Source: Thermoproteota archaeon (GTDB lineage Archaea; Thermoproteota; Methanomethylicia; Methanomethylicales; Methanomethylicaceae). Taken from it: 64,000 nt of DNA. Both the position numbers and the translations under genes were made by a program. The notes under the pieces were generated by a model. The model was not told the DNA's origin. It saw only the letters and a list, made by a program, of their open reading frames with translations, and did no database searches. Positions 16,590-59,758 of the stretch are shown piece by piece. The DNA is taken from NCBI GenBank assembly GCA_029887795.1, contig JARXPE010000003.1, positions 28,600-92,599 on the forward strand, written 5' to 3'. The first letter of the stretch is position 1. Each line of letters starts with the position of its first letter.

Positions 16590-16660
16590 AAAAATATAAA
16601 GTCTCAAAATTACTTTAATATAATTTATTTTAATTTCAGGATTGAGGGCAAGATTTTTAA
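16590..16660 (+). promoter_or_regulatory. Candidate archaeal BRE/TATA promoter of the mcrBGA operon
   Basis: Very AT-rich 160-bp spacer with TATA-like boxes (aaaaatataaag, ctttaatataattta) 50-110 nt upstream of the mcrB ATG. GAGAGG ribosome-binding site at 16695-16700. Confidence 0.3.
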
Positions 16661-16707
16661 CCTCCAGTTATCTATTCTCACGTAAGAAATCTACAGAGAG
16701 GAGTTTT

Positions 16708-18042
16708 ATGCCAAAATATCCGGACAAAGTGAACTTGTACGACGACCGCGGAAAACTTTTTGAGACAAACGTTCCAGTTGAGGCTCTGAGCCCACTGAAA
16801 AACACTGCTATACAAAAAATCATCGCTTACGTAAAGCAATGCGTTGCGGTTAACTTGGAAGGTGTGGAAAAGGCGCTAGCTACAGGAGAAGTCGGCGGAA
16901 AATGGTGCATCATTAGAGGTAGATCTTTGAAACTCGATCTGGTAAAGAACGCAGGCAGCGTGGCGGACTCTTTGAAGAAGTGCTTGCAAGTAGATCCCGA
17001 TGACGACACAGAAGTAAAGGTTCTAAAGGGTGGAAAGCACCTCCTCGTAAAGGTTCCAGCAAAGAGGTTAAACGCTGGAGTTGAGTACACTACCGGAGCA
17101 ACAGCAGTGGCTGCTGCCCTCTGCTGCACAATAATTGAGAACTTTAATGTGAACATATGGGATGCAGACCTAGTACACGCTGCCGTCTGGGGAAGGTATC
17201 CGCAGACCATGGAGATGCTGGGTGGAAATGTGTCTTCACTATTGGCAGTGCCACAACAAAATGAGGGTATGGGCTACGCCCTTAGGAACATACCATGTGC
17301 ACACATCGCTCTCATCGCAAAGAAGAACGCTATGAATGCTGCCGCCCTCTCATCGATCTTGGAACAGACTGCGATGTTCGAGATGGGTGATGCCATTGGT
17401 AGCTTCGAGAGGTTCCACCTCTTGGGTCTAGCCTACCAGGGATTGAATGCTGACAACATAGTCTACGACCTTGTGAAAGAGAATGCAAAAACTGGAACAC
17501 TCGGAGATGTTGTCATTTCAACAGTGAAGAGAGCCCTATCGGATGGTGTCATCAAACCCTTAAAGAAGACACCGTCTGGATACACGCTCTACACCACAAG
17601 CGATCTCAATAAGTGGAATGCCTATGCTGCTGCAGGTCTATTGGCTGGAACAATGATCACTTGCGGTGCTGCCAGATCTATGCAACACGCTCCATCAGTC
17701 TTCATATACTTTAACGACCTTTTGGAGAGGGAGACTGGACTTCCAGGTGTGGACTTTGGTAGAGTCACAGGTACAGGCGTGGAAATGTCATTCTTCAGTC
17801 ACTCAATCTATGGTGGAGGAAATCCTGCCGTATTCCACGGAAACCACATAGTGACTCGACACAGCAAGGGCTTCACCATTCCATGCGTTGCTGCTGCCGT
17901 GGCGCTTGATGCTGGAACCACCATATACACCCCAGAGAGGATCAGCGGCGTAGTTGGTGAGGTCCTGAGCGAGGTACCTGAGCTTAGAGAATCTTTACGC
18001 TATGTGAATGAGGCCGCGGTCTCAATAAAAGGAGGAGTCTAA
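16708..18042 (+). CDS. mcrB: Methyl-coenzyme M reductase beta subunit
   Basis: [15 protein letters not shown]..., ...ALRNI..., [49 protein letters not shown] are hallmark McrB blocks. Start at the ATG at 16708 behind a ribosome-binding site; the track start at 16642 is an over-extension. Confidence 0.95.
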
Positions 18043-18044
18043 AA

Positions 18045-18821
18045 ATGGTAGAATATAAGCCCCAATATTACCCTGGAGGATCAAATGTAGCCGCCAATAG
18101 GCGGAAATACATCGATCCCAACTACAAGCTAAGAAAGCTAAGAACAATAAGCGACGATGACTTAGTTCGATTAATGGGTCATAGGGTCCCAGGCGAGGCT
18201 TACAAGAGCGTCCACCCGCCACTGGAAGAACTTGGCGAGCCTACATGCCCAATCAGGGAGATTGTAGAACCTACGCCCGGGGCAAAAGCCGGTGACAGGA
18301 TTCGTTACATACAATTCACAGACTCTGTATACTTTGCCCCATTGACTCCCTACATGAGAGCTTGGATGGGTCATATGCGATACCGTGGAGTGGACATTGG
18401 TGTTCTATCGGGGCGTGTCCCTCTTGAGGCCAGAGAGCGAGATCTTGAGAAGGTTGCTAAGGAACTCGTTGAGACCGAGATCTTCGATCCGGCGAGGGTC
18501 GGGATCAGGGGTGCCACAGTTCACGGTCATGCTTTGAGGCTCGACGAGAACGGTCTCATGTTCGATGCCCTGCGCAGGTTCCAGTATGATAAGAACAAGG
18601 GCGAGGTCGTCTATGTTAAGGACCAGGTTGGAGTTCCGCTCGACAGACCGATATACGTAGGAAAACCCACCCCTGAAGAGGAGCTGAGAAAAATAACCAG
18701 CCAGTTCAGAGTTGACGGAGAAGCCTTCAGGAATGACAAGGAACTGATTGAGTTCGTTCAGAGGATTCACATGCTCCGAACGGAAGCAGGTTTCGATCCT
18801 AACAAGGTGAAAGATCTATAG
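18045..18821 (+). CDS. mcrG: Methyl-coenzyme M reductase gamma subunit
   Basis: [55 protein letters not shown] are McrG blocks; starts 2 nt after the mcrB stop. Confidence 0.95.
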
Positions 18822-18832
18822 GAGGAATTGTA

Positions 18833-20503
18833 ATGAGCGAAGAGAAGAAGATGTTCCTAGAAGCGCTCAGGAGAAAGTTCAAGGAGTCTCCTGAAGAGAA
18901 ACAAACAAAATTCTACATATATGACGGATGGAAGCAGTCAAAGAGAAAGAGGGAGTTCGTAGAAGCTGCTCAGAAAATAGCCAAAGAGAGGACCGTCCCC
19001 TTCTACAACCCTGACCTCCACCTCGGCGGCATCCCATTAGGGCAGAGAGTCTTGATGCCTTACCGTCTATCGGGTACAGACATCTATTGCGAGGGTGATG
19101 ACCTTCACTTCATAAACAACGCCGCCATGCAGCAGATGTGGCATGACATAAGGCGGACTGTGATCGTCGGACTCGATGCTGCGCACACGGTCCTACAGAA
19201 GAGGCTCGGCAAAGAGGTCACCCCTGAAACCGTGAACCACTATCTAGAGGTACTTAATCACGCGCTGCCTGGTGCGGCTGTAGTTCAGGAGCACATGGTC
19301 GAGACACACCCTGGATTGGTCTCTGACAGCTATGTCAAGGTATTCACAGGAGACGACGAGCTCGCGGACGAGATCGACGATAGATTTCTTATCGACATAA
19401 ACAAGGAGTTCCCTGCAGAGCACGCGGCACAGCTAAAGGCTGCCATCGGAAAACGCATTTACCAGGTATGCCGCATGCCAACACTCGTGGCGATGACCTG
19501 CGACGGAGGTACAATGTCAAGATGGGCGGCTATGCAGATCTCAATGTCAATGATAAATGCATACAAACTTATGGCTGGAGAGGCTGCGGTGGGAGAATTC
19601 GCCTTCGCAGCAAAGCACGCAGAAGTCATAGAGATGGGCACTCTTATGCCTTGGAGGCGAGCAAGAGGTCCCAACGAGCCCGGAGGAATTCCATTGGGCT
19701 ATATGGCGGATATCTGCCAGGCCTCGAGGGTCAAGCCCGAGGATCCAGTCTGGGTCGCCTTGGAAGCCATTTCCATGGCAGCTGTCCTATACGACCAGTT
19801 CTGGTTCGGAAGCTACATGTCTGGTGGCGTCGGGTTCACGCAATATGCAACTTGCACCTACACTGACAACATCCTTGATGACTTCTGCTATTATGGCGCC
19901 GAGTACGTTAAAAAGAAGTACGGCGGTTTCGCAAAAGTCAAGCCGAGCTGGGATGTGATAAACGATGTTGCCACGGAGGTCACATTATACGGTCTGGAGC
20001 AATATGAAAGGTACCCTGCGCTGATGGAGACTCACTTCGGAGGATCCCAGAGGGCTGCCGTAGTAGCAGCTGGTGCTGGCGTCTCCGTGTCACTGGTGAC
20101 CGGTCATTCCACTGCAGGAATCAACGGTTGGTACCTCAGCCAGCTACTCCACAAGGAAGAGATGGGTCGACTTGGCTTCTACGGCTACGACTGCCAGGAC
20201 CAATGCGGATCAGCCAACAGCTTCTCATGGAGGAGCGACGAAGGTCTACCCTTCAACCTGAGGGGAGTGAACTACCCCAACTATGCTCTCAATGTCGGAC
20301 ACCAGTCAGCATACTGCGGTATAGTCTCCGCCGCTCACGGTGGGAGAGGCGACGCTTGGACAACAAACCCGTTGATAAAAGTTGCCTTTGCAGATAAGGA
20401 TCTGAAATTTGACTTCACGCACCCGAGGCTATGCTTCGGAAAAGGCGCTCTCAGGGAGTTCATGCCAGCTGGCGAGCGCGATCTAATAATCCCAAGCCAC
20501 TAA
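18833..20503 (+). CDS. mcrA: Methyl-coenzyme M reductase alpha subunit
   Basis: [73 protein letters not shown] are McrA blocks. GGAGG ribosome-binding site precedes the ATG. Confidence 0.95.
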
Positions 20504-20531: not shown

Positions 20532-21119
20532 ATGACCGGATATTCATCGCTTAAGAGAATTTTTGAAATTATTGTCGACCTATCCAATTTAACGCCAGAG
20601 CTTGCCAAAGAAAAGTACTCTGAATTTCCATCACTTGCGAGTCATATTGCAATTTTATTTTCAAGAGACTATTTACACGATGTATTATCAAGGTTGGAAC
20701 TTCAACTGAGAATTGTGGAGAGCTATGATCCGCCCATCAGACCTGCGCTGGATCCTTACTCTTCTACACAACTTGGCATCTTCAGCAAGAACTTCTCTGA
20801 CTGGGAAATTGGACGCCTACTCAATTATCCAGCGTGCTGCATCGATTCGTTTTCCGAAGAACTCCGTTATGGATTAGACTCGAAACATTTAGAGGAACTG
20901 AACACTATAAAAGAAGAGGTTGTATTCGTCACAACTGCGGGATTTGTGCCCCACAGCATATTTTGTAAAGAAGCGTCAGAGAGCGCACTTATTGGCCTCC
21001 TGAAGTTAGACGCGTTGAAAGTATTAAATGATCTGGAGAAGGAGCTTGCACGCAGGCTCCCTCATGCTCACCCGGAATACCAAAAACACTATTATGACAT
21101 GCTAATCCCAGATGTCTAA
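20532..21119 (+). CDS. Conserved archaeal protein with a YPACCIDSF Cys-pair motif (DUF483-like, tentative); probable fourth gene of the mcr operon
   Basis: 195 aa, same strand, 28 nt after the mcrA stop. Family name is from memory only. Confidence 0.45.
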   Translation: MTGYSSLKRIFEIIVDLSNLTPELAKEKYSEFPSLASHIAILFSRDYLHDVLSRLELQLRIVESYDPPIRPALDPYSSTQLGIFSKNFSDWEIGRLLNYPACCIDSFSEELRYGLDSKHLEELNTIKEEVVFVTTAGFVPHSIFCKEASESALIGLLKLDALKVLNDLEKELARRLPHAHPEYQKHYYDMLIPDV

Positions 21120-22325: not shown

Positions 22326-23255
22326 TTGGAAGACCTTAAAGAGATTGTGAGCAAGACAAGATCGTACAAAGGGCTATCAAGAAAGGCCCAGATTGGGGAG
22401 ATTGTTAATATACTTGGCGAGGTTGACTATGACGACGCTGGAATATTGAATGTGGAAGGACTCAATATTGTGGTTTCTACAGACGGCATAGCAGAGGATC
22501 TAGTCAAGTCTGATCCTTGGTTTGCTGGGTATTATTCTGTCCTTGTTAATGTCAATGATGTGGTGATAAAGGGTGCTAGACCTCTTGGATATGTGAACGT
22601 TATATCTGGACCTAGAGAGATTAGGAACAAGATGGCAGAAGGCATAAAGGCTGGACTTGAAAAGTACAACGTCAAACTGCTCAAGGGTCATACACATCCG
22701 GACTCTTCATACGCGGCAATTGACGCCGCGGTGGTTGGAATAGCAAAAAAGGTCGTAAGGGGAACCGACGCCCGTCCTGGCGACGAAATTGTGATGGCCA
22801 TCGACCTTTCAGGATCGTTTGGTCTAAAGGGCTGGGTTAAATGCTTTGATAGTACAGTTAAAAAGTCATCTAAACAAGTTCAAGATATGATCTCTGCCAT
22901 AATCTCTGTCATAGAAACTGGAAAAGTGCATTGTTCTAGGGACATAAGTGCCCCTGGAATATTAGGAAGTCTGGCAATGTTATGTGAGGCTAGTGGTGTT
23001 GGAGCAGAAGTCTCTCTGGACAAGATCCCTGCCCCAAAAGGCTCTTCGCTTTCTGAGTGGTTGACTTCATACCCTGCAATGGGATTTATATTTGGCTCCT
23101 CTACTTCCAATGTCTTTGAGACCTTGAAGAATTCTGGTTTCTCTGTGGAATCTGTAGGTCGCTTCACAGCCGACAAAAAAATAATCGTGTCTATGGATCA
23201 TAAAAAAGAAATCTTCATGGATCTAGCGAGGGAGTCTGTCTTCGGATTGAGATAG
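22326..23255 (+). CDS. AIR-synthase-related (PurM/HypE/ThiL-like) protein; candidate methanogenesis marker protein 2
   Basis: VVSTDGIAEDL and downstream glycine-rich segments characteristic of the PurM-like N and C domains; TTG start; lies in the MCR island. Confidence 0.55.
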   Translation: MEDLKEIVSKTRSYKGLSRKAQIGEIVNILGEVDYDDAGILNVEGLNIVVSTDGIAEDLVKSDPWFAGYYSVLVNVNDVVIKGARPLGYVNVISGPREIRNKMAEGIKAGLEKYNVKLLKGHTHPDSSYAAIDAAVVGIAKKVVRGTDARPGDEIVMAIDLSGSFGLKGWVKCFDSTVKKSSKQVQDMISAIISVIETGKVHCSRDISAPGILGSLAMLCEASGVGAEVSLDKIPAPKGSSLSEWLTSYPAMGFIFGSSTSNVFETLKNSGFSVESVGRFTADKKIIVSMDHKKEIFMDLARESVFGLR

Positions 23256-24851
23256 TTCCGCGATCTCCTCTGGGGAGAAGGAGTTCACGACTTCACATAC
23301 GGGGCCCCTCATTGCTATCTTCCCGTCTCTGAGCAGTAGCGCTTCGTCACAGGTATTCATGACAAACCCCATATCGTGCGAGACTATTAAAAAAGTCTGC
23401 CGGAGCTCGTGCCTTGCATTCTTTATTGATTTGGAAACATCCTGCTGCGTTATTGGATCCATTGTGCCGGTAGGCTCGTCTAATATTACTAGGATCGGCT
23501 CTCTTATTAGGACTTGGGCAAGCGCGACCCTATGCCTCTCGCCCTCGCTCAACTCATCAGGGTACTTATTCAAAATAGGCTCTATCAGACTTTCTTGGAA
23601 ACCAGCCGCTCTCAAGACCATGGCTGCCTTGAATTTGGCAAATTCGTCTGGCAATTCAAGCCCGATGGCATCAGTAAGGTTCTCTTGCACAGTCCTGTGT
23701 GGATAAAGCGAGTACTCTTGGTGAAGCAAACCGATGTATGGCGTCGCTCTGCCGCGCCCCATAGGCCCTGGTTGTAACATGTCCACCCATTCATCACCTA
23801 TCCTCAGCCAGACCCTGCCAGATGTCGGTTCCGTAAGACCTGCAATGATCCTCGAAAGCGTCGTCTTCCCTGCCCCACTCATCCCTACAATGCCAAATAT
23901 CTGCCCCTCCCTAACCTCAAAGGAGACGTCATCTAGCGCTCTAACAACCCCTTTGTCTATGGAGAAGTAATGCTTCTTCAGCCCCTCTACCCTGAGTATT
24001 GTATCTCCCGCCTCTGCGGGCACCTCTTTTGATATGGTTTCTGCCTCTGATAGGAACTCCCTCACGATTTCCTTCGGGTCTCCTATGACCTTCACACTTC
24101 CGTTCTCTAACAGTATTGCCCTCTCACTCAAAGCTTCTACTGCCTCGGGCAGGTGTGATGTGACCAGCATGGTTATGTTTTTACCCTTGACCTCTTCGTT
24201 CAATATCCTGTATACCATCCTTGCACTCAGCGGATCGAGCGTCCCCGTGGGTTCGTCTGCCAGCAACAGTATGGGTCTTATTGCCAACTGCCTGCCTAGT
24301 ACGACCCTCTGCTTCTCACCACCACTGAGATCCCTCGCCGCATGGAGTAGCCTATGTTCCAGGCCCATCCTCTTGGCAAGCTCGAGCGCCTTGCGCCCAA
24401 CATCGGCATTCTCGAGTTCAGCTTTCTCTAACGCCTCAACAAAATTCTCGTACACGGTGAGGCTGCCGTAAAGAGCAAAGGTTCTTTGAAACATTATTGC
24501 TATCCTATTTTTAATGTCTTTGGCTGACTCCCTATCCTCCCAGAAGTCTACCTCAATAAGTTCCATCTTTCCACAACATCTAGGACAAACCTTCCCTGCC
24601 CTGCTAGGCCCCTCAACGAAGCCACATTCCTTGCATGATGCTACTCGGTATATCACTTTACCTGCCGTGGGAGCATATTCTCCAATCCCTTTAAGCATTG
24701 AGAGAAGCACACTCTTACCAGAACCGCTCTTCCCAAGAATCCCGACTCTTTCGCCTTCGCGAATTACTAGTGACACATCCTTGAGAACGTAATGCCCGTT
24801 AAACTTTTTGGAAACGCCATCTACGATGATCAATGCCTCCCTCATCGTCAT
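23223..24851 (-). CDS. atwA: MCR system component A2 (AtwA-like): soluble tandem ABC ATPase with a Zn-ribbon insert
   Basis: Two full ABC cassettes (GKSGSGKS/LSGGEKQRV/LLLADEPT and GMSGAGKTT/LSEGERHRVALAQVL/ILDEPTG) with no transmembrane domain. CKECG...CPRCCG insert in cassette 1. Next to ycaO-tfuA. Confidence 0.7.
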   Translation of the reverse strand: MTMREALIIVDGVSKKFNGHYVLKDVSLVIREGERVGILGKSGSGKSVLLSMLKGIGEYAPTAGKVIYRVASCKECGFVEGPSRAGKVCPRCCGKMELIEVDFWEDRESAKDIKNRIAIMFQRTFALYGSLTVYENFVEALEKAELENADVGRKALELAKRMGLEHRLLHAARDLSGGEKQRVVLGRQLAIRPILLLADEPTGTLDPLSARMVYRILNEEVKGKNITMLVTSHLPEAVEALSERAILLENGSVKVIGDPKEIVREFLSEAETISKEVPAEAGDTILRVEGLKKHYFSIDKGVVRALDDVSFEVREGQIFGIVGMSGAGKTTLSRIIAGLTEPTSGRVWLRIGDEWVDMLQPGPMGRGRATPYIGLLHQEYSLYPHRTVQENLTDAIGLELPDEFAKFKAAMVLRAAGFQESLIEPILNKYPDELSEGERHRVALAQVLIREPILVILDEPTGTMDPITQQDVSKSIKNARHELRQTFLIVSHDMGFVMNTCDEALLLRDGKIAMRGPVCEVVNSFSPEEIAELSQSEDRLPR

Positions 24852-24892: not shown

Positions 24893-25552
24893 TCATACAC
24901 TCCTATTGATTGTCGTCAGTTCTCTGATCTTCTTTAAAACTTCAATCGCATCAATCCGCTTTTGATCGACTCTCTCTCTTTTCAACAATTCTAGAATGAA
25001 CTTTGCCCTTTCTCTGCCTAATTTGTCTATGGCATTCTGAATTATCCTACTGTAATTTCTGAGGTGAAAGGGGGTCTCCTTAGCACTCTCTATTATGATC
25101 TCTCCGTCCGCCTTACTGATCATGCCTCTTGATATCAGTAGCTCCAAAGTAGCTCTTATATTGACCAAAGGCTCGGAGAGTGGTTGATATGTGTTTGGAT
25201 GGAATACAACCGCCACTTCGTCATCAGCGCTAATAACACCTTGTTTATACCATCTGTAAATCTTCCCGACTCCGATCATGCCGTAGAGATCCAACTCGCA
25301 AGCCCTCAGAGCTCCTATACTAGATCCGCCGACCACCTTTACTCCCTTTTTAAGGGCATAAAGTATCTCACGATGCGAAACTGCTGTTTTCTGGTAGAAG
25401 ACGCCATCCACAAGCCCTATTATCTCGAACCCCTCATCAACAGCTCCCGCCACATCTCCCCTCCCAGCAGGTGGCCTGTACTCAACATCGTCCAAAATTT
25501 TTTCCGCCTCTTCTACAGGCAGACTTGGTCCTAAAAACACAACAACTTTCAT
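24893..25552 (-). CDS. tfuA: TfuA-like protein (partner of YcaO for McrA thioglycine formation)
   Basis: MKVVVFLGPSLPVEEAE...PPAGRGDV...GSSIGALRA is the TfuA signature. Start moved to the ATG at 25552 (GAAGGT ribosome-binding site), 25 nt after the ycaO stop; the track start at 25618 overlaps ycaO. Confidence 0.8.
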   Translation of the reverse strand: MKVVVFLGPSLPVEEAEKILDDVEYRPPAGRGDVAGAVDEGFEIIGLVDGVFYQKTAVSHREILYALKKGVKVVGGSSIGALRACELDLYGMIGVGKIYRWYKQGVISADDEVAVVFHPNTYQPLSEPLVNIRATLELLISRGMISKADGEIIIESAKETPFHLRNYSRIIQNAIDKLGRERAKFILELLKRERVDQKRIDAIEVLKKIRELTTINRSV

Positions 25553-25577
25553 AACCTTCTTCACACTTTCGATTTTT

Positions 25578-26783
25578 TCAACATTGACTTTTCTTGATCT
25601 TTTGGAGCGCCCTAGCACCTATTCTGTCTTTGTCCAGTGCATAAACCTCTAAACCTGGGACTATGACCCGCACGGCGGGAATGTTGACTTCATTTCTCGT
25701 CAAATCCACAATTATGACCTCGTTCAACCCCGCCTTTTTAAGCTTATTTATGATGTGGTTTATGTCCTCCAAAACATCATCACTATCATAGCCTTCAAGT
25801 TCGCTTATGCTTACCCGATCACCGGAACCCTCAAACCACTTCTTATTCAACCTCTTCATGCGCTCATATCCTATCCTTCTCGCAAAAACTGCCTTGTAGG
25901 TGTCCTCCCTAGTCCCATGAATCGTTGTAAGCCTGCTCTGGGCAGCCTCAGTCAGCGCCCTAACCAGGGCGATCTCTGGCACAAGGTGCGTCCCAACTCC
26001 AAGCGAAAGAAGCGCTGGATCTTTAGTCATCTCATCATCTATCGCAACCGATATTGTGGGTATCCCTATGTCTGATGTTATGTCTTTTATATAGACTTGC
26101 ACCGAAGCCTCCCTGAATCTTCTTATAAGTTCCTCTGCCAAGTCACAACCCTCGACCAACAAATCTCTACCCTTAGTAACTCCCAACTCAAATAGAGACC
26201 AAGCATCCCTCTCTATGACCTCCAAGAGCCCATGCAGAATGGCTTCCTCTATCTCATTCCCTACTGCCAATCCATTGGTATTGGTTCTGAAGAGCTGGTT
26301 TTCCCCCCTGTAGGGATGGAATACTGCCTCTGCTGGAACTAGGACTGCTTTCCCATGAGTCAGCGAGTGCCCATGTACCCACTCAAGATTTTCACTATGA
26401 GAATAGCGCCTTAGTTTAGGAAGATTCAGGGCAAATGGATCGAGCACGCAGTATGACTCGGATAGTGATTCATAACTGCCTTTTATTATTCCAATTTCTC
26501 TTGGCTCTCCTGAGAACCTTTCTATTCCCTCCATTATCGCCGAGATCTTTGCCTCCTCGGGAACATGACCCTTACCGGTGTATACTGTTATCGCACCTTC
26601 TGCAGCAAGGGGTCGCATTGCCGTGAAAACTGGTATCCCTATCCTGTCCAGTCCTGTTATGTCCGCCACTCTAGTTATTCCCGCCTTACTGTAAACTTTT
26701 TCTAGCAGCTCTAAAGTTTCCATCAGAGGCTTAGCTCGATGGGTGCCCTCTTTGTGACGCTTTTTTATGGAACGAAGTATCAT
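25578..26783 (-). CDS. ycaO: YcaO-domain protein (methanogenesis marker 1; McrA glycine thioamidation)
   Basis: ITRVADITGLDRIGIPVF and downstream ATP-binding YcaO blocks; 401 aa; directly upstream of tfuA. Confidence 0.85.
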   Translation of the reverse strand: MILRSIKKRHKEGTHRAKPLMETLELLEKVYSKAGITRVADITGLDRIGIPVFTAMRPLAAEGAITVYTGKGHVPEEAKISAIMEGIERFSGEPREIGIIKGSYESLSESYCVLDPFALNLPKLRRYSHSENLEWVHGHSLTHGKAVLVPAEAVFHPYRGENQLFRTNTNGLAVGNEIEEAILHGLLEVIERDAWSLFELGVTKGRDLLVEGCDLAEELIRRFREASVQVYIKDITSDIGIPTISVAIDDEMTKDPALLSLGVGTHLVPEIALVRALTEAAQSRLTTIHGTREDTYKAVFARRIGYERMKRLNKKWFEGSGDRVSISELEGYDSDDVLEDINHIINKLKKAGLNEVIIVDLTRNEVNIPAVRVIVPGLEVYALDKDRIGARALQKIKKSQC

Positions 26784-26892: not shown

Positions 26893-28149
26893 TCATCTTC
26901 CTTCTTCTTCAAGTTCCTTCATACCGGAGACCATAACTGCCACACCCACTGCACCTATTAGGTTCGGTCTTTCCGGAACGATCACATCGACACTCAAAAT
27001 CTCTGACATGGCCTTAACGAGCCCTTTTATGAGCGCTGTGGAGCCGACCTGCACAATCGGGTACCTGATGTCTATCTCCTGAAGCTGCTGTTCGAAGACC
27101 TGCTCCGCGACGCTGTGACACGCCGCCGCGGCAACATCCTCGACCTTAGCCCCGCTAGCAAGACCCGCGACCAGATCTTGTAGTCCAAATACTATGCAAT
27201 AGGCATTCATGGGGACTTTTCTGTAATCACCCTTCATTGCAAGATCTCCGAACTCTTCAAGAGATACTCCCAGTCTCTTTGCGCTCGTCTCTATAAATCT
27301 TCCGGACGCCCCTGCACAGACTCCTCCCACCGTAAAGCTATCCGGTATACTGTCATAGAGGGTGACTGCTTTGTTGTCCATCCCTCCTATGTCTATTACA
27401 GTAGCATCTCCCTTCTGCCTATCGCAGAGGTATAGTGCCCCCTTTGAGCAAGTGGAGACCTCCTCCATCGCAAGCTTGGCCTTATACGCCTCCTTTAGAA
27501 TCATTCTGCCATAACCTGTTACACCTATAGCCTCCAAACTTTCCAGGCTGACCTTTGCTTCTTTAAGTGCCATATTGAGTGCTAATTGCCCGCTCTCAAA
27601 TACACTCGTTGTCGGGATCCACCCTGAACCGATGATCTCGTCGTCCTTCATTATGACCGCCTTTGTTGTCGTAGACCCTGAGTCTATCCCGGCAGTCAGC
27701 CCCTCCTGTTTTGTCCTGGCGAATAGCGGTTTCTTTCCGATTATACTGACGAGGGCCTCCATCCTCAGCAGCAGAGCGCCCGCCTTGGTCCTCTCCGTGA
27801 ATGAGTAAGTCACAACAGGGATCTTTGTTTTGCTCTGAATGTATCTCCTGATAATACTTCGGGTAAGTGCGCCCTCCGCGCATTTGAAACATGTAGCTAT
27901 GAATACCCCGTCAGCCTCAACCCTTCCTTCCACGACCGCTTTTGCCCTTGCCATCATCACCTTTAGACCTGGACTTGCTACATGAAATCCAAGCTCATCC
28001 TCAATTGATCTTATCTCAGCTAGGTCGACCTCTGGGATAAAGATCTTGCCGCCAACTATTTCGGCAGCTTTCTCAATCTCATTTTGTATGCCACTATATT
28101 CCGTTCCACAGGATATCTGCGCTATCCTGATCTTTCTCGCCATCTTCAT
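26893..28149 (-). CDS. BadF/BadG/BcrA/BcrD-type ATPase (CoA-substrate-specific enzyme activase family) with an N-terminal roughly 140-aa extension; candidate methanogenesis marker 15
   Basis: [14 protein letters not shown] phosphate-1 motif and [10 protein letters not shown] phosphate-2 motif of the ASKHA/BcrAD family. Confidence 0.55.
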
Positions 28150-34639: not shown

Positions 34640-36004
34640 ATGTCTACTGATAAGACCAAAATACGTGTAGACCTCTCATTAGAAGAGATTCCTAAGTATT
34701 GGTACAACATCCTTCCAGATTTACCTGAACCGATGCCGCCCCCCCTAGACCCCTCGACCAAAAAACCCATCAGTCCTGAGGCACTCTTTGCGATTTTTCC
34801 CAAATCTTTAGTCATGCAGGAAGTTTCAACAGAGCGCTTTGTACAAATACCCGATGAGGTAAGGGAGATATATGCCCGATTGGGCAGACCGACCCCCCTC
34901 ATAAGGGCGAGAAGACTGGAAGAACACCTCCAAACCCCTGCCGAGATATACTACAAATACGAGGGTGTATCTCCCGCCGGCAGCCACAAGGGAAACACAG
35001 CGGTGGCTCAGGCCTACTACAACATGAAGGAGGGCGTGGAGCGGCTGGTCACAGAGACAGGAGCTGGTCAGTGGGGGACAGCGCTGGCGCTGGCAACATC
35101 CTTCTTCAACCTCAAATGCAGGGTCTTTATGACAAGGGCATCCTACAACCAGAAGCCCTACCGACGGATCGTTATGGAACTTTATGGGGCTGAGGTGTTT
35201 CCTTCCCCGAGCACGGTAACAGACTTTGGGCGAAAAGTTCTGAGGGAGCGACCAGACCACCCCGGAAGCCTAGGTGTGGCAATAAGCGAGGCAATAGAAA
35301 CCGTGATTAAAGATCCAAAATCCAAATACTCCTTGGGCTCTGTTTTGAACCACGTTCTTATGCACCAGACGGTCATCGGTCAAGAAGCAAAAATACAGAT
35401 GGCGATGATCGACCGGACTCCGGACTATGTAATTGGCTGCGTGGGAGGAGGCAGCAATTACGCTGGTTTAGCTTATCCCTTCATACAGGAAAAACTTAAT
35501 GGAAAACTCGAGGCAGACTTCATATCTGTGGAGCCCACCGCAGTCCCATCATTCACCAAGGGGGTATATGCTTACGACTTTGGCGATACTGCTGGACTTA
35601 CACCCCTGCTTCCAATGTACACGGTAGGGCATAATTTCGTGACCCCCCCAATACACGCTGGCGGGCTGAGATACCATGGCAAGGCACCGTCCATGAGCAT
35701 TCTCGTCAAAAACCGCGTCATTAAACCTGTGGCCGTCACCCAGAAGAATGTTTTTGAGGCCGGAAAGACGTTTTCACGATGCGAGGGTATTGTTCCAGCC
35801 CCGGAGAGCGCCCATGCAGTTTACATGGCTATGGAGATCGCAAGAATGTGCAAGGAAAAGAACGAGAAGAAGGTCATACTCTTCAACTTGAGCGGACACG
35901 GTCTTTTAGATCTGGGAGGTTATGGGGAATATCTTTCTGGCGCCTTACCCGAGAACTGCGAGCCGAAGGGCTTCGCTTTTGATGACTTGCCTCTTAAAAT
36001 CTAG
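34640..36004 (+). CDS. trpB2: Tryptophan synthase beta-like protein, TrpB2 type
   Basis: PLP Lys region [23 protein letters not shown]; GxGGGSN block [11 protein letters not shown]; 454 aa with the N-terminal extension typical of TrpB2; no trpA adjacent. Confidence 0.85.
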
Positions 36005-36083: not shown

Positions 36084-36587
36084 TTAGCTAAGGCTCACTT
36101 TAGTCACAGTGGGTATTGTCAAGAGCTTTGAGACAACTTCTCCTGGTATTTTCCTCTCAGTTATTATCAGCAATTTAGGATCAGGATTCAGATCTGGATC
36201 CTCTGCCAAAATCTGTCTAATACTAACCCCTGCCTCGGCTATGTGGCTTGTTGCTTTTGCTATCACCCCAACTGCGTCTGGACGCGCCCTGATCTCAACA
36301 ACACTGTAGCCCAATTCCGGCGCCACATCTTTCAAAAAACTGCCTGCAGGCCTCAACCCAGAAAAAATCCTCTTCATCCTGGCGTCGCTCAAGATGTCCT
36401 TAACAGCCTCCCTGACAACTCTCCTGTCGACCTTGACCGCCTTGGCTATGCTGGTATCTGCTATCTCAACGTTGCCACAGACAACTTTACCTTTTTCATT
36501 AATGCTAAAACCTAGCTCAACCATCAGTCTAGCCACCTTGAGCTTCGCTGGTGCACCAGAGAAGAATTTCTCTATCTCTTTCCACAT
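36084..36587 (-). CDS. ACT-domain putative regulator (COG2150-like)
   Basis: N-terminal helical region plus C-terminal ACT-like beta-alpha-beta-beta-alpha-beta segment (VVEIRARPDAVGVIAKATSHIAEAGVSI). Start tentatively at internal M7 behind AGGGA; the track start is 36605. Confidence 0.45.
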   Translation of the reverse strand: MWKEIEKFFSGAPAKLKVARLMVELGFSINEKGKVVCGNVEIADTSIAKAVKVDRRVVREAVKDILSDARMKRIFSGLRPAGSFLKDVAPELGYSVVEIRARPDAVGVIAKATSHIAEAGVSIRQILAEDPDLNPDPKLLIITERKIPGEVVSKLLTIPTVTKVSLS

Positions 36588-36713
36588 ACTAATTTCCCTG
36601 TACAATTATATGCAAAAACGCTTATATATGGTTATTCTAAACAAATCATTCCCAAATGTCTCAACCTTCTAAACGGAATCAAGACTGGTATCCACAAATT
36701 ATTACTCTTGAAT

Positions 36714-37268
36714 TTACTCTTGATCTCCACCCACACCAACAACTATCGTCCCGATATTGGGATCGTCCTCAGAGACTCCAAACTTCTTCTTCAAATAAAG
36801 ATCTGCAGGGGGAGACGGGCTTCCTACAACTATTCCCAAACCTGCTAACTCAGGTATTTGAAGGGGGAGCATGATTAAGCTGATCTTGTCAATCTTCTCT
36901 TTTATCAGACGCATCTTGTCTTTGTAGAATACAAGGTTTCCCATAACAATATTGCCCTCATTTTTTAGCTTTTCCAACTCCCCCTCATCATAGACGTCCT
37001 CACCAATGGTTTCCTCATCGCAGACTATCTTTACGAGCGACGTCTTTGGCCATCTGAGACTTGCGTTGGTTATACAGGCATAAACGGCTTTCTTGCGAAG
37101 GGCCTCTCTGACACCCAAATTTATGCCTTTGCATAGTCCCATTAAGACCTTTCCCTCAGCCTCCCTCTCTAGCCTTTCGATCTCAGCCCGGTCCTCTTGG
37201 CTTAAGAGTGTAGCCTTTATGATTCCCTTCAGTCCCATCAATTTTTCCAGAACATTACCTTCTGACAT
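36714..37268 (-). CDS. Uncharacterised protein; last gene of the mmp/A2/RACo operon
   Basis: 184 aa; overlaps the 3' end of the RACo-like gene by 14 nt, which suggests cotranscription. Confidence 0.4.
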   Translation of the reverse strand: MSEGNVLEKLMGLKGIIKATLLSQEDRAEIERLEREAEGKVLMGLCKGINLGVREALRKKAVYACITNASLRWPKTSLVKIVCDEETIGEDVYDEGELEKLKNEGNIVMGNLVFYKDKMRLIKEKIDKISLIMLPLQIPELAGLGIVVGSPSPPADLYLKKKFGVSEDDPNIGTIVVGVGGDQE

Positions 37269-39156
37269 ATCTCCTCACGACCCTTGGTGCCTTAACATTG
37301 GCTACTACCTCAGGAAAATCTTCCAGTTTACTATTGGGCATGTACATGGCATTAACGTATTCCTCCTCAAAAATTGGTTCTGCTGCCAGCTCTACATACT
37401 TAACCGCCTTCGCGATAGCCCCTGCCTCACACCTCATCTCTACTGATTTGAGGCACATCCTCGCACCAGATCCAGCTGTATTCCCCAAAAATGAGATCTT
37501 GGATATTGGCAGCTCCGGTATCATCCCTATCGTTCTGGCATTCTCGGGATCTATGTAATTCCCAAAAGCGCCAGCTATTATTATCCCCGATAGGTCTTCT
37601 CTCCTGAAACCACTCTTTCTCATGAGCGTCATGTACCCTGCATACATCGCAGCTTTTGCCTTCTGAATCTCCCTAATGTCCTCCTGAGTTATTACAATGT
37701 CCTCTTTTCCGGATGCTGTATCCTCTTTAAACACCAAGACAAACTCCTTTCCGTCTGCCCCGTCCCTGATCCTCTTATGATCTTGAAGCACGATCTTTCC
37801 TGACATATCAATTACTCCTCTTTTGAGCATCTCCGCGACCGCGTCTATTATGCCCGAACCACAAATGCCTCTGGCTCTCTCTCCGTCTATAGTATTGTAC
37901 TCCACCTCAAAATCCTCTCCAATCTTGACTTTTTCTATGGCGCCGCTGGCGGCTCTCATTCCGCATTTGATGTGTGCCCCTTCAAATGCTGGACCTGACG
38001 CGGTCGAGCATGACCATAGCCCCTCCTTACATCCCAATACTACCTCGGTATTTGTTCCTACATCCATTAGCAGCGTCAACCTCTCCTTCTCATGTATTCT
38101 AGACGCTAAAATATCCGCTATCGCATCAGCCCCGACAAAACCCGCAACGTTTGGGAGCGTATGAATATTGCCCGCCGGGTTTATCCTAATGCCCAAATCC
38201 CTAGCTCTGACATTGTAAGCATTCCCCAAAACTGGGGGGTAAGGTGAAAATCCGAGTGACCTGACATTAAGCCCCAAGAAGAGGTGATGCATCGCTGTAT
38301 TTCCCACAGCCACAAGCTCGTAGAGGTCTTCTCTCCTGATACCTGTTTCCTCAAGCCCTCTATCTATGAGTGAATTTATGCCGTCGATTATTGCTTTTTG
38401 AATTTCTCTAAGGTTTTCATCAGACTGGGAGGCGTATCCTATCCTTGATATGACATCTTCTCCATACCTTATCTGCGGATTCATTATGCCATCTGCGAAT
38501 ATGATCCCTCCATCCAATAAGTCCACTATGAAGACGGCAAGCTTGGTTGTACCTATATCCACTGCTACCCCATAGAGTTCTTTGGTTCTGTCCCCCAGCT
38601 GAATATTCACAATCTCATGATTATTCAAGATTGTAAAAGTAACCTTCCAATCACCCTCCCTTAGTATCTTTGGCATCTTCTTAATGGTATCATAATCTAT
38701 TAGAACTGGATCAAACCCCATTCCTGCCAGGACCTGGGCGATCCTGACATCGTCTCCCTTAGGATCTTGAAGAGAGGGTGGCAAAACTTCCACATAGACT
38801 TTTTTGACGTTCGGCCTCAGAGTGATTGCAGGCTCCTTGCCCATTATCACGAGCCTCTGTCTCCCGACCCTGCTTTGGTCTGGTACTTGGACCACCATGT
38901 CCTCCTCAACAATTAACTGGCACGCCAGGCGGTAGCCTTTTCTTATTCTCTCATCACCGACCCTTTTCTTCTCTTGTTCAGTAGGGGGCGGGGCTCTTCC
39001 CTCAAGTATTTCAACTAGACATTTACCGCAGAAACCCTTTCCGCCGCAGATGTTTGCCAAATCGACTCCTGCCCTCAGTGCCGCAAACATGACAGTGGAT
39101 CCTGCGGGGACTGAAACCCTCTTCCCCTCAGGCAAGAACTTCACTTCAAACTCCAT
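37255..39156 (-). CDS. RACo/RamA-like ATP-dependent reductive activase (N-terminal 2Fe-2S ferredoxin domain plus ASKHA ATPase/DUF4445)
   Basis: N-terminal plant-type ferredoxin Cys pattern (CGGKGFCGKC...C). Central VAVDIGTTK and DVGTNTE ASKHA phosphate motifs. Start ATG overlaps the stop of the upstream A2-like gene (atggagtttga). Confidence 0.65.
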   Translation of the reverse strand: MEFEVKFLPEGKRVSVPAGSTVMFAALRAGVDLANICGGKGFCGKCLVEILEGRAPPPTEQEKKRVGDERIRKGYRLACQLIVEEDMVVQVPDQSRVGRQRLVIMGKEPAITLRPNVKKVYVEVLPPSLQDPKGDDVRIAQVLAGMGFDPVLIDYDTIKKMPKILREGDWKVTFTILNNHEIVNIQLGDRTKELYGVAVDIGTTKLAVFIVDLLDGGIIFADGIMNPQIRYGEDVISRIGYASQSDENLREIQKAIIDGINSLIDRGLEETGIRREDLYELVAVGNTAMHHLFLGLNVRSLGFSPYPPVLGNAYNVRARDLGIRINPAGNIHTLPNVAGFVGADAIADILASRIHEKERLTLLMDVGTNTEVVLGCKEGLWSCSTASGPAFEGAHIKCGMRAASGAIEKVKIGEDFEVEYNTIDGERARGICGSGIIDAVAEMLKRGVIDMSGKIVLQDHKRIRDGADGKEFVLVFKEDTASGKEDIVITQEDIREIQKAKAAMYAGYMTLMRKSGFRREDLSGIIIAGAFGNYIDPENARTIGMIPELPISKISFLGNTAGSGARMCLKSVEMRCEAGAIAKAVKYVELAAEPIFEEEYVNAMYMPNSKLEDFPEVVANVKAPRVVRRYVRR

Positions 39157-40900: not shown

Positions 40901-41812
40901 TCACGAGAAATAGGACTCTGGCAAGATCCTAACAAGTATGTAATCCCTCATTTGAGATCTTGTTATACGAGATAGTTCATCGAGCCTTTTTCCCTCAACG
41001 ACCACAGAGGCAACTTTCTCCTTGTACTCGTCGTACGGCAACTTAATCCTGACGCCGTCGACCTTCAATGTTACTGGATTTGGTGAGAGGGCGTCCAAAA
41101 CTTCCGGAACCTGCCTCTCCACCTCGTTCTTTACAAGCGCTGGCTCTATTATTAATGGATCCAAATCCATTTCCCTCCGCCTTCCCTCGATCAGTTTTCC
41201 TGCTAGCTCTGAGACCCTTCTCAACTTCTCTATCATGTCTACAGTTCTTGCCCTCTCTGGATATCTCCCTATTCCTCCAACATAACCACTCGCTCCCTCC
41301 ACCTCCAGTTCGGGTGGTCCGCCAGTCACTATCACTGGTACGGATAACTCCTTGAACAACTTTGGCTTAAATCTCCTCAAACAGTGCTCAAAGTTCCCGA
41401 GCGTAAAAACTGCGAGATCATGTTCTTCAATAAGCTGCCTCTCCTGTACTGATGTATGCACTATCTTCTGACCTACTCCCCTAGCCAGTCCCATTATGTT
41501 TGTCTTTGCACCGTGCCTCCTCAAGTTCTCAGCTATATCACAGGCAGGGTGTGGAAGGTGGTGCCTGGATAATGTAGGGGCCACAACTACAACCTCGGTT
41601 CCTATGAGTGGGGCATCTCTGAGCTTGCCCTTTACCTCTTGGACTATTTCTTGCAACCTTCCAACTTCTTCCTCTGGGATCGCCAAATTCATTATTAGGT
41701 CCAGTCCGATCACAGTCTTTTGTATCACAAAGCCTCCAACATCTTCTACAAACTCCAGTAAAAGTTCATGCTTATACATGCCGCCCTCAAAGATGACATA
41801 TTTTAACATCAC
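40901..41812 (-). CDS. Candidate methanogenesis marker protein 7
   Basis: 303 aa; size, operon position (with marker 17-, marker 3- and A2-like genes) and composition fit Mmp7. Assignment by context and memory. Confidence 0.45.
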   Translation of the reverse strand: MMLKYVIFEGGMYKHELLLEFVEDVGGFVIQKTVIGLDLIMNLAIPEEEVGRLQEIVQEVKGKLRDAPLIGTEVVVVAPTLSRHHLPHPACDIAENLRRHGAKTNIMGLARGVGQKIVHTSVQERQLIEEHDLAVFTLGNFEHCLRRFKPKLFKELSVPVIVTGGPPELEVEGASGYVGGIGRYPERARTVDMIEKLRRVSELAGKLIEGRRREMDLDPLIIEPALVKNEVERQVPEVLDALSPNPVTLKVDGVRIKLPYDEYKEKVASVVVEGKRLDELSRITRSQMRDYILVRILPESYFS

Positions 41813-44898: not shown

Positions 44899-44917
44899 AG
44901 GTTTAGGGGCGATTTGC

Positions 44918-45559: not shown

Positions 45560-45566
45560 AATTAAA

Positions 45567-59477: not shown

Positions 59478-59758
59478 TTTTTTATCCCTGCGGCATAACC
59501 TTGATCTTCCGCGATTATTAACCTTTTACTTTAGTATTATTAATCATCATTTCACACTAGCTTTCGATATATGATTATAAATTTATTTAGACAGAGCCTT
59601 ATGAAATCCAGAAAATTGATCGCTAGAAGTTTAAAATTTGGATCGAAATTTTTTTAAGTCCCAATATATACAAAAATCATGTCACTTCTAGGATTCTCTC
59701 TTTTTTTATGAGATTTTCCTGGGAGTTATAGAAATCTGCTATTGGTTGTTGGTTTCAG

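Follow-up and report, generated by a model that had tools for sequence, protein, structure and literature searches.

The reduction of the MCR nickel cofactor to Ni(I) in vivo is only partly understood, both as to the ATPases that act in it and as to the source of low-potential electrons. Structural and biochemical work from 2025-2026 has dealt with canonical component A2 only, and the widespread Zn-less sister of this protein has served merely as an outgroup. The stretch of DNA analysed here (the window, 64,000 nt, from a methane-making Methanomethylicia (Verstraetearchaeota) archaeon) encodes two ATPases of the A2 type at separate loci, each among genes connected with MCR. This raises the question of how the two proteins are related, and what the second one does. 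The ORFs and the regions in which they differ are as follows:

23223-24851, reverse strand: paralogue 1, assigned as canonical MCR component A2 (AtwA), tandem ABC ATPase, 542 aa (TIGR03269)
24573-24635, reverse strand: A2 zinc-binding motif, residues C73-C93 (CKEC-x12-CPRCC), read from the sequence
39146-40828, reverse strand: paralogue 2, A2L, a Zn-motif-less A2 homologue, tandem ABC ATPase, 560 aa, all catalytic motifs present
39485-39709, reverse strand: A2L helical insertion, in the helical subdomain of NBD2, at about residues 374-448, placed by gaps in pairwise and HMM alignments

Component A2 and its zinc loop

A first-pass annotation of the window described both proteins as soluble tandem ABC ATPases and divergent paralogues of the A2 type. 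This description holds: each has two ABC_tran domains, and they align over their full length with 32% identity (BLASTP E 7e-77). Both cassettes of both proteins have an intact Walker A, Q-loop, LSGGE-type signature, Walker B with its catalytic Glu, and H-loop.

In an NCBIfam search, paralogue 1 matches TIGR03269 with 766.5 bits over profile positions 2-527 of 530, where the curated equivalog cut-off is 517.1 bits. It matches the A2 chain of the MCR activation complex (PDB 8s7v_K/9h1l) end to end with 591 bits, and the comparison with M. thermautotrophicus AtwA that had been proposed gives 55% identity. In its length, its two NBDs and its Zn motif it agrees with component A2 as represented by TIGR03269, chain K of 8S7V/9H1L and MA_3998 of M. 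acetivorans. It is concluded from these alignments that paralogue 1 is canonical component A2 (AtwA), and a full member of the family.

Its orthologues are the A2 proteins that cryo-EM shows as part of the MCR activation complex (PMC12176620). They have an MCR-dependent, oxygen-sensitive ATPase activity and bind McrG (PMC12176620; bioRxiv 10.64898/2026.03.18.712670), and ATP is hydrolysed by them solely in the MCR-bound state (bioRxiv 10.64898/2026.03.18.712670). By orthology, paralogue 1 would bind ATP and hydrolyse it only at its docking site, McrG on the back of MCR. In the activation mechanism taken from the same two papers, hydrolysis by A2 would lead to a conformational change, upon which the McrC-Mmp7-Mmp17-Mmp3 cluster chain would reduce F430 Ni(II) to Ni(I).

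The cysteine motif lies in NBD1 and reads C73-K-E-C76-x12-C89-P-R-C92(C93). In the alignment with 8s7v_K, the A2 structure from M. maripaludis, these residues stand opposite the cysteines of the Zn loop (CPHC...C-EC), and they match the published A2 zinc-binding motif (ZBM), CXXCX12CXXC (bioRxiv 10.64898/2026.03.18.712670). The motif is found in 117/117 full-length A2 homologues and in 0/118 A2L homologues; in the pairwise alignment, paralogue 2 lacks it, and 28 residues at the Zn loop of A2 have no counterpart. The four cysteines had been taken for an insert particular to paralogue 1. Their presence there and absence from paralogue 2 are borne out. The idea that they are private to this protein is rejected by the alignment with the A2 structure, by the homologues and by the literature, and the Cys4 loop is the Zn site common to the A2 family.

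The A2L family and the age of the split

TIGR03269 is also the best NCBIfam match of paralogue 2, at 333.1 bits, which is below the cut-off, and in three stretches. Its best PDB sequence match is again 8s7v_K, with 245 bits in three pieces (the next match has 150), and the same chain is the top hit in a fold search of the PDB (E 7e-39, 31% identity). The fused NBDs of mycobacterial DppD/OppD (21-22% identity in the fold search), the ABC-F proteins EttA and Uup (~20%) and ABCE1 share the generic two-NBD fold with paralogue 2, but at 18-22% identity and with weaker fold scores than A2; EttA and Uup rank below both A2 and DppD/OppD. When 1.84 billion representatives were searched exhaustively by HMM, the clusters of A2L had 508-816 bits. 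Full-length matches of the next rank (~283-365 bits) show the three-piece pattern of A2, and those that can be named are annotated as A2, while generic ABC proteins reach at most 255 bits. ABC-F models are not among the top NCBIfam matches, and the linker between the two NBDs is about 15 residues long in the model, where an ABC-F protein would have a PtIM linker. An ABC-F or other non-A2 tandem ABC identity, which had been raised as the finding that would count against an A2 relationship, is thus rejected by the NCBIfam, PDB sequence, fold and exhaustive HMM searches alike, and A2 is the nearest family of A2L as judged by sequence and modelled fold.

A2L has the tandem-NBD architecture, linker and fold of A2, with 31-32% identity. 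It differs from A2 in having no Zn motif and in its helical subdomains, of which that of NBD2 contains an insertion and that of NBD1 is longer by about 10 residues. The distance from Q-loop to signature in NBD2 is 109 aa in paralogue 2 and 57 aa in the A2 of the window, a net gain of 52 aa; across the families it is 107-109 aa in 115 A2L members and 57-59 aa in A2. In the AlphaFold model of paralogue 2 (pLDDT 88, pTM 0.81) the insertion is all-helical, with helices at residues 375-387, 392-402, 406-415, 420-426 and 432-445. It had been described as a helical insertion of about 80 aa in cassette 2, which is right as to its place and its helical nature; its size comes down to a net 52 aa, and it is family-wide. 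On these alignments the Cys4 motif and the 52-aa insertion are hallmarks of their families rather than lineage-specific additions.

In a tree made from the split NBDs, the four groups are each monophyletic with 99-100% bootstrap, and the N1 halves of both families group together at 100%. A2 and A2L are reciprocally monophyletic, at the same support of 99-100%, across Methanomethylicia, Nezhaarchaeota, Bathyarchaeia, Archaeoglobi and Methanobacteria, and the split between them is therefore ancient. A recent lineage-specific duplication is rejected by this tree together with the occurrence of A2L orthologues in many phyla, and with it goes the suggestion that the two genes arose by local duplication followed by subfunctionalisation. 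The A2L orthologues have 40-88% identity, and the best 80 of 440 genome loci all belong to MCR/ACR archaea (80/80). The named cluster representatives are from Methanothrix, Hadarchaeales, Methanococcus voltae, Helarchaeota and Methanoliparum. [quoted passage not shown]

The split is already present in the literature, as AtwA1/AtwA2 with second copies in Methanothermobacter (PMC3087415), and as an 'A2 homolog lacking the ZBM', which in M. acetivorans is MA_3967 (bioRxiv 10.64898/2026.03.18.712670). The published Zn-less homologue has both NBDs and no ZBM and is found in many MCR archaea (bioRxiv 10.64898/2026.03.18.712670; PMC3087415), a description that fits paralogue 2. Orthologues with 40-45% identity occur in Methanosarcinaceae (Methanolobus, locus L084), Methanothrix and Methanobacteriaceae, and through its Methanosarcinales members (Methanolobus and Methanothrix as stand-ins) paralogue 2 is probably orthologous to MA_3967. 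In the searchable literature we found no statement on the function of the Zn-less homologue, which is counted or used as an outgroup; here, by contrast, it is encoded inside an mmp3-6-17-7 operon and coupled to RACo.

Gene context of A2 and A2L

The A2 locus and the mcr genes near it contain:

16642-20503, forward strand: mcrB-mcrG-mcrA (TIGR03257, TIGR03259 and TIGR03256, all above cut-offs)
20532-21119, forward strand: DUF483 gene, directly 3' of mcrA (PF04467, 109 bits)
22326-23255, forward strand: AIR-synthase-like gene (marker-2-like), convergent with A2 (AIRS, AIRS_C; TIGR03267 251 bits, below the cut-off of 365)
24893-25618, reverse strand: tfuA, McrA glycine thioamidation (NF033432, 272 bits, cut-off 235)
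25578-26783, reverse strand: ycaO / methanogenesis marker 1, McrA glycine thioamidation (TIGR03266, 464 bits, cut-off 365)
26893-28149, reverse strand: mmp15 (BcrAD/BadFG-type activase), first gene of mmp15-ycaO-tfuA-A2 (TIGR03286, 649 bits)

The order mmp15-ycaO-tfuA-A2, with the first three genes upstream of A2, is kept in other Methanomethylicia, and the position of the AIR-synthase-like gene beside A2 is also conserved. Rfam and tandem-repeat scans of the whole 64,000-nt window gave no matches. The genes around A2L are:

36714-37268, reverse strand: unk184, last gene of the operon, no NCBIfam or Pfam match
37255-39171, reverse strand: RACo-family protein (Pfam Fer2, RACo_linker, Raco_middle and RACo_C_ter, all above cut-offs)
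40901-41812, reverse strand: mmp7 (TIGR03274, 389 bits)
41809-42360, reverse strand: mmp17 (TIGR03291, 123 bits)
42362-42781, reverse strand: mmp6 (TIGR03272, 136 bits)
42778-44301, reverse strand: mmp3, first gene of the operon (TIGR03268, 485 bits)
44581-46043, forward strand: mcrD-mcrC-mmp5, divergent from the mmp3 operon (MCR_D, TIGR03264, TIGR03271)

The neighbours that had been named at the two loci are confirmed (ycaO-tfuA beside A2; mmp7, mmp17, mmp3 and a RACo-family gene beside A2L), and mmp15 and mmp6 respectively are to be added to them. Mmp7, mmp17, mmp6 and mmp3 lie upstream of A2L, and the RACo gene overlaps the 3' end and stop codon of A2L by 26 nt. The overlaps within the operon (-4, +1, -4, -26 and -14 nt) suggest a single transcript. 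Mmp7 precedes A2L in 15/15 Methanomethylicia loci with upstream sequence, and RACo is directly 3' of A2L in all 16 that extend far enough; unk184 follows RACo in 14 loci (49-78% identity by tblastn), and the divergent mcrD-mcrC-mmp5 is found in 12 Methanomethylicia loci also. It is concluded that the mmp3-mmp6-mmp17-mmp7-A2L-RACo-unk184 operon is conserved in Methanomethylicia and is not there by chance. This upholds, across the class, the proposed connection between paralogue 2 and the Mmp3/6/17/7 activation genes.

The M. acetivorans 'MCR activation operon' contains Mmp5, Mmp6, Mmp17, Mmp7, Mmp3 and Mmp15 together with component A2; in the window, too, these marker genes lie close to an ATPase of the A2 type. 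In Methanomethylicia this set is split three ways, into mcrD-mcrC-mmp5, mmp3-...-A2L-RACo-unk184 and mmp15-ycaO-tfuA-A2. The ATPase of the core mmp operon is here the Zn-less A2L, whereas in M. acetivorans it is canonical A2 and not the homologue MA_3967, and the Methanomethylicia operon has two genes added. The combination of the second and third of these clusters is undescribed in the searchable literature.

The RACo-family protein has a [2Fe-2S] ferredoxin domain, a linker, a middle domain and a C-terminal ASKHA ATPase domain. It shares all four with RACo of Carboxydothermus hydrogenoformans (PDB 3ZYY/4C1N), and matches 3ZYY over its full length (residues 7-622) with 440 bits. The gene in the window is part of an MCR-activation operon and does not stand among genes for the acetyl-CoA pathway or for methyltransferases, and its score against the NCBIfam AcsV 'exception' model (533) is below the cut-off of 800. 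The nearest homologues outside the group are stand-alone genes in non-methanogens of the Bathyarchaeia and Asgard groups, by which RACo as an MCR-specific family is rejected. The gene had been read as a pointer to reductive activation. It belongs to a general corrinoid-activase family, and its presence alone therefore does not point to Ni(II) reduction.

Beyond Methanomethylicia, mmp6-mmp7-A2L is found in two lineages (loci L028 and L036). In Nezhaarchaeota (L004, L023, L071) A2L is divergent from an adjacent mcrD (mcrD< A2L> <mcrAGB), a Bathyarchaeote (L022) has mcrD< A2L> A2> ycaO>, and in Archaeoglobi mmp8-A2L is beside mmp14. There are independent mcr/mmp linkages of A2L in at least five lineages. 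The Methanomethylicia operon, together with the mcrD, mcr and mmp linkages in Nezhaarchaeota, Bathyarchaeia and Archaeoglobi, is the first contextual evidence we found for A2L in the MCR system. In Methanosarcinales, ANME-1, ANME-2 and Methanopyri A2L stands among housekeeping genes. Many Methanobacteriaceae loci have A2L-FlavinReduct-Usp followed by rubredoxins, a flavodiiron-type protein, ferritin, peroxiredoxin and SOD, and in M. voltae A2L adjoins energy-converting-hydrogenase genes. Given these contexts, the synteny with MCR genes is lineage-restricted.

Possible roles of A2L

We consider it probable that the window contains one member each of two ancient ATPase families tied to MCR/ACR, namely canonical A2, and A2L as a second remodelling ATPase of the MCR system. 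Both ATP sites of A2L are catalytically complete, so it should act as an ATP-closed clamp like A2. A2L has lost the Zn loop of NBD1, and its helical subdomains have gained the 52-aa helical bundle and, in NBD1, about 10 aa. The helical subdomains of ABC NBDs are the usual surfaces for contact with partners. A2L would therefore dock on a different surface or partner from A2; most likely it is a second ATPase of the MCR system whose docking surface has been remodelled. In Methanomethylicia it would be co-expressed, and probably act, with the Mmp3/6/17/7 module, and it appears to be translationally coupled to a RACo-type ATP-dependent reductase. What the analysis establishes is the family membership of both proteins, their intact motifs, the insertion, the phylogeny, the taxonomic range and the synteny; any physical partner of A2L, and the step that it powers, are inferences. 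The McrC pull-down from M. maripaludis reported canonical A2 only (PMC12176620), yet Methanococcus voltae has A2L, and A2L is thus no obvious stable subunit of the complex.

The Methanomethylicia operon places A2L directly behind Mmp7 and before an ATP-dependent reductive activase, and this position, inside an activation-gene operon and beside a corrinoid-activase-type gene, is a testable lead to its role. A2L and RACo could together be the physiological module through which electrons enter the MCR activation complex at the cost of ATP, with RACo feeding low-potential electrons to the Mmp/McrC cluster chain, as it does to Co(II) corrinoids, and A2L docking RACo or remodelling the Mmp module. 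We regard this as unlikely; if true, the missing in vivo electron donor for the step from Ni(II) to Ni(I) would be identified for at least one lineage, and the A2-homologue family would have a first function. The 26-nt overlap, the invariant place of RACo downstream of A2L and its full-length relationship to 3ZYY would also fit a partnership away from MCR, in reactivation of corrinoid methyltransferases or in general low-potential electron input. That A2L is widespread where no RACo gene is adjacent, that RACo has an ASKHA ATPase domain of its own, and that its closest outside homologues stand alone in non-methanogens make such a partnership quite improbable. A2L might also work with McrD while MCR is assembled or loaded with F430, and not in the reduction of Ni, as the divergent adjacency in Nezhaarchaeota and the Bathyarchaeote and the divergence of the Methanomethylicia operon from mcrD-mcrC-mmp5 might suggest. 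We doubt this: the adjacency is confined to few lineages, and the immediate neighbours in Methanomethylicia are Mmp7 and RACo, not McrD.

The oxidative-stress string in Methanobacteriaceae and the housekeeping neighbours in Methanosarcinales, ANME and Methanopyri would be expected if A2L acted in oxidative stress, redox homeostasis or on some other target, with its mmp/mcr synteny incidental, and the present finding would then reduce to the correct annotation of two known families. A stress context is, however, also compatible with re-activation of oxidised MCR, and the restriction to MCR/ACR archaea (in the best 80 of 440 loci and the named clusters), A2 as the closest family and the repeated mcr/mmp linkages leave a role unrelated to MCR with rather little probability. 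Least probable of all, and very unlikely, is the division of labour in the first-pass annotation, in which the Zn-motif paralogue serves modification and maturation with YcaO-TfuA and the Zn-less one is the reductive-activation ATPase. The neighbourhoods of both genes in the window fit it, and both are kept across Methanomethylicia. YcaO is, however, itself the ATP-using enzyme of thioamidation, and we know of no ABC partner for it. The operon of paralogue 1 starts with mmp15, a member of the M. acetivorans activation operon, and it is canonical A2 that the latter contains. Moreover, a modification role for paralogue 1 conflicts with experiment, as its orthologue A2 is a physical part of the activation complex and has an ATPase that depends on MCR (PMC12176620; bioRxiv 10.64898/2026.03.18.712670).

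Two smaller observations concern genes that recur in these clusters. DUF169 genes lie near A2L in Archaeoglobi, in M. voltae and at locus L028, at only 25-28% identity, and the radical-SAM genes are not detectably homologous; a conserved DUF169/radical-SAM link to A2L is rejected for these reasons. The DUF483 gene that follows mcrA in the window turns up again in mcr/mmp clusters from Nezhaarchaeota and Bathyarchaeia.

Canonical component A2 and its operon

The two ATPase genes annotated on first pass were confirmed on the reverse strand at 23223-24851 (paralogue 1, 542 aa) and 39146-40828 (paralogue 2, 560 aa). Pfam finds two ABC_tran domains in each protein, and a membrane domain in neither. 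In a motif scan, both cassettes of each protein show Walker A, the Q-loop, an LSGGE-type signature, Walker B including its catalytic Glu, and the H-loop, and the ATP sites of both are complete. Full-length identity between the two proteins is 32% (E 7e-77). The GC content of the window is 45%, and its proteins are 88-99% identical to proteins from Methanomethylicales/Methanomethylicaceae MAGs, which places its source among the Methanomethylicia (Verstraetearchaeota). The genes around paralogue 1 are as follows.

Features around paralogue 1 (window coordinates, strand, description)
16642-20503, +, mcrB-mcrG-mcrA
20532-21119, +, DUF483 gene, directly behind mcrA
22326-23255, +, AIR-synthase-like, marker-2-like gene
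23223-24851, -, paralogue 1 (A2)
24893-25618, -, tfuA, upstream of paralogue 1
25578-26783, -, ycaO, upstream of tfuA
26893-28149, -, mmp15, upstream of ycaO (order mmp15, ycaO, tfuA, paralogue 1)
near paralogue 1, -, HAD hydrolase gene and DUF2098 gene

Paralogue 1 is the canonical component A2 of methyl-coenzyme M reductase (MCR). On the equivalog model TIGR03269 (cut-off 517) its score is 766.5 bits. With AtwA of Methanothermobacter thermautotrophicus, which is defined biochemically, it shares 55% identity, and with chain K of PDB 8S7V/9H1L, the A2 subunit in the MCR activation complex of Methanococcus maripaludis, it aligns end to end (591 bits). Its Zn-ribbon-like insert had been taken as a special feature. 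In the alignment, C73KEC-x12-CPRC92 matches the cysteines of M. maripaludis A2, and the spacing is exactly that of the zinc-binding motif (ZBM), CXXC-X12-CXXC. This region has been described as a flexible Zn-coordinating loop (Ramirez-Amador et al.), and the motif as near-universal in A2 and required for maximal ATPase activity (Adler and Nayak, bioRxiv 10.64898/2026.03.18.712670). It was present in 117/117 full-length A2 homologues in our own sample, and is therefore a hallmark of the family rather than a peculiarity of this protein. The proposal that paralogue 1 serves modification and maturation is unsupported: it is the orthologue of the structurally and biochemically studied A2, and thus the activation ATPase, and its operon holds mmp15, a gene of the MCR activation operon of M. 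acetivorans.

The arrangement mmp15-ycaO-tfuA-A2, the convergent AIR-synthase-like gene, the DUF2098-HAD pair and the DUF483 gene behind mcrA are found class-wide in Methanomethylicia. Homologues of DUF483 also occur in mcr and marker (mmp) gene clusters of Nezhaarchaeota, adjoining mmp5, and of one Bathyarchaeote, after ycaO. The gene may be an unrecognised MCR-associated marker.

The Zn-motif-less family A2L and its age

Paralogue 2 belongs to A2L, a distinct and old sister family of A2. It reaches only 333 bits on TIGR03269 and 245 bits against 8s7v_K, in three pieces each time, and the alignment breaks correspond to the absent Zn loop and to additional sequence in the second cassette (NBD2). 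The ZBM was found in 0/118 full-length A2L proteins. The second cassette had been credited with a helical insertion of about 80 aa. It is indeed helical, but the distance from Q-loop to signature in NBD2 (107-109 residues in A2L, 57-59 in A2) gives 52 aa, fixed across A2L. A confident AlphaFold2 model (pLDDT 88.3, pTM 0.81), for which 63 family members were used, places the insertion within the NBD2 helical subdomain as a bundle of short helices (375-387, 392-402, 406-415, 420-426 and 432-445). The first-pass description of two divergent A2-type paralogues with differing sequence features is thus borne out, with the size and meaning of the insertions corrected, and the functional reading attached to it is supported in part.

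Neither paralogue clusters with ABC-F proteins or another tandem ABC family. For paralogue 2 such an identity is rejected: the top Foldseek match in the PDB is 8s7v_K (E 7e-39, 31% identity), with fused DppD/OppD ATPases (21-22%) and ABC-F proteins (about 20%) ranked below it. The D-loop of A2L NBD1 reads TMSC, with Cys replacing the usual Asp in at least 90% of the 63 members; unlike most, paralogue 2 keeps the Asp at residue 182 (TMTD).

A neighbour-joining tree was made of 29 proteins, each cut into its two cassettes, with 100 bootstraps. The four groups (first and second cassettes of A2 and of A2L) are each monophyletic in 99-100/100 bootstraps, the first cassettes of A2 and A2L pair in 100/100, and the outside domain, PstB from the window, is farther away than any A2 or A2L cassette. 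The split-cassette tree implies that A2 and A2L share one tandem ancestor. It rules out a duplication specific to Methanomethylicia, and the suggested subfunctionalisation, if taken to follow a local duplication, does not fit two ancient sisters. The separation would predate the divergence of the lineages that carry both, or both may have spread together later.

The paralogue pair is already known. AtwA1 and AtwA2 have been recorded, M. marburgensis having two copies and M. thermautotrophicus three (Kaster et al., PMC3087415), and atwA paralogues are mentioned by Borrel et al. An A2 homologue with both NBDs and without the ZBM (MA_3967), found in many archaea, has been used as an outgroup (Adler and Nayak). 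No functional statement on it was found in the literature searched.

Orthologues within Methanomethylicia are 59-88% identical to paralogue 2. Those at 40-50% come from Nezhaarchaeota, Bathyarchaeia, MCR-bearing Archaeoglobi, Methanobacteriaceae, Methanopyri, Methanosarcinales, GoM-Arc1/Ethanoperedens, ANME-1 and ANME-2. When 1.84 billion cluster representatives were searched exhaustively by HMM, the matches fell into three score tiers. The highest comprises about a dozen clusters of full-length A2L (508-816 bits). After a gap come full-length matches at about 283-365 bits with the three-piece pattern of A2, which carry a component A2 annotation where they could be named, and finally generic ABC proteins, which score no more than 255 bits. 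Among the named A2L representatives are Methanothrix, Hadarchaeales, Methanococcus voltae, Helarchaeota and Methanoliparum. In the samples examined, A2L is confined to archaea with MCR or alkyl-coenzyme M reductase (ACR).

Genomic neighbourhoods of A2L

In the window, A2L lies in a string of seven genes.

Features around A2L (window coordinates, strand, description)
44581-46043, +, mcrD-mcrC-mmp5, divergent from the mmp3 operon
42778-44301, -, mmp3, first of the seven-gene string
42362-42781, -, mmp6
41809-42360, -, mmp17
40901-41812, -, mmp7, directly upstream of A2L
39146-40828, -, paralogue 2 (A2L)
37255-39171, -, RACo-family gene, after A2L
36714-37268, -, unk184, 184 aa, after the RACo gene

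The gaps from mmp3 to unk184 are -4, +1, -4, +72, -26 and -14 nt, and the string is likely to form one transcript. unk184, which has no Pfam or NCBIfam match, is the conserved last gene of the operon in Methanomethylicia (49-78% identity, 14 loci) and overlaps the RACo stop by 14 nt. Immediately downstream of the operon are genes for a TrpY-family regulator (36084-36605, -) and a TrpB-like PLP enzyme (34640-36004, +); a PALP gene of similar kind follows in M. mesodigestus.

Synteny was analysed by tblastn of the window's marker proteins against 86 A2L loci (numbered with L).

Arrangement of genes at A2L loci, by lineage
Methanomethylicia: mmp3-mmp6-mmp17-mmp7-A2L-RACo-unk184
L028 (Nitrososphaeria-labelled MAG) and L036: mmp6-mmp7-A2L, without RACo
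Nezhaarchaeota: A2L flanked by mcrD and the 3' end of mcrA; a few kb off, canonical A2 adjoins mmp7
Bathyarchaeote L022: mcrD (reverse), then A2L, A2 and ycaO (all forward)
Archaeoglobi: A2L after DUF2099 (marker 8), abutting DUF2114 (marker 14)
Methanobacteriaceae: A2L, flavin-reductase-like gene, Usp, then rubredoxins, flavodiiron-type protein, ferritin, peroxiredoxin, SOD
Methanosarcinales, ANME, Methanopyri: A2L among housekeeping genes
M. voltae: A2L adjoins energy-converting-hydrogenase genes

At least five lineages have A2L next to mcr or marker genes. Within Methanomethylicia, mmp7 is directly upstream of it at 15/15 loci having upstream sequence, and RACo directly downstream at 16/16 loci reaching far enough, with mcrD-mcrC-mmp5 divergent. 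In Methanobacteriaceae, the flavin-reductase-like and Usp genes follow A2L at most loci (L001, L005, L026-L078), and the rubredoxin to SOD stretch is taken from L001, L002 and L005; this context suggests a link to recovery from oxidative stress.

Genes for a DUF169 protein (25-28% identity) lie no more than a few kb from A2L in three distant lineages: L003, L024 and L025 (Archaeoglobi), L089 (M. voltae) and L028. In two of these three, a radical-SAM gene (about 288 aa) is also close to A2L, with no detectable homology between the two radical-SAM genes. Further tandem-ABC genes of greater divergence (22-30% identity to A2 or A2L) occur within mmp clusters, or close to them, in GoM-Arc1/Ethanoperedens and the Nitrososphaeria-labelled MAG (L028 899-6000; L049 5537-8700; L050 18128; L058 13158; L073 5743), and may be the ACR-type A2 variants of the literature.

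The RACo-type gene and possible roles of A2L

The RACo-type protein has a [2Fe-2S] Fer2 domain followed by linker, middle and ASKHA domains, and aligns over its full length (440 bits) with Carboxydothermus hydrogenoformans RACo (PDB 3ZYY). Its nearest homologues outside Methanomethylicia, at about 50% identity, are in non-methanogenic Bathyarchaeia and Asgard archaea, and the one examined is a stand-alone gene amid housekeeping genes. Such homologues in non-methanogens imply that the family is a general reductive activase of the corrinoid type. Methanomethylicia are methyl-reducing methanogens that rely on corrinoid methyltransferases. On a plain reading, the gene is the corrinoid activase of Methanomethylicia, sharing an operon with MCR activation genes. 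A direct supply of electrons from its product to the MCR activation complex is conceivable but lacks support.

A2L itself would be a second ATPase of the MCR system, closing on ATP as A2 does, and may dock through its remodelled helical-subdomain surface onto a partner or site other than that of A2. Candidates are the Mmp3/6/7/17-McrC module, McrD, or another face of MCR. An McrC pull-down from a Methanococcus species reported only canonical A2 (PMC12176620), yet A2L is encoded in a Methanococcus genome, which counts against a stable association of A2L with the complex.

In M. acetivorans, canonical A2 shares the MCR activation operon with Mmp5, 6, 17, 7, 3 and 15, the Zn-less homologue being encoded elsewhere, whereas in Methanomethylicia the Zn-less homologue and the RACo-type activase occupy the place of A2. 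No description of this class-wide operon was found in the literature searched. It represents a variation on a known system and offers a useful and testable lead more than a surprise.

At the end of the window, 57849-64000, there is no Rfam match and no tandem repeat. An ORF at 57849-59477 (-, 542 aa) is without a Pfam match, the 4.5 kb beyond it holds only ORFs of 50-145 aa, and GC drops to 0.36 at 58-60.5 kb.
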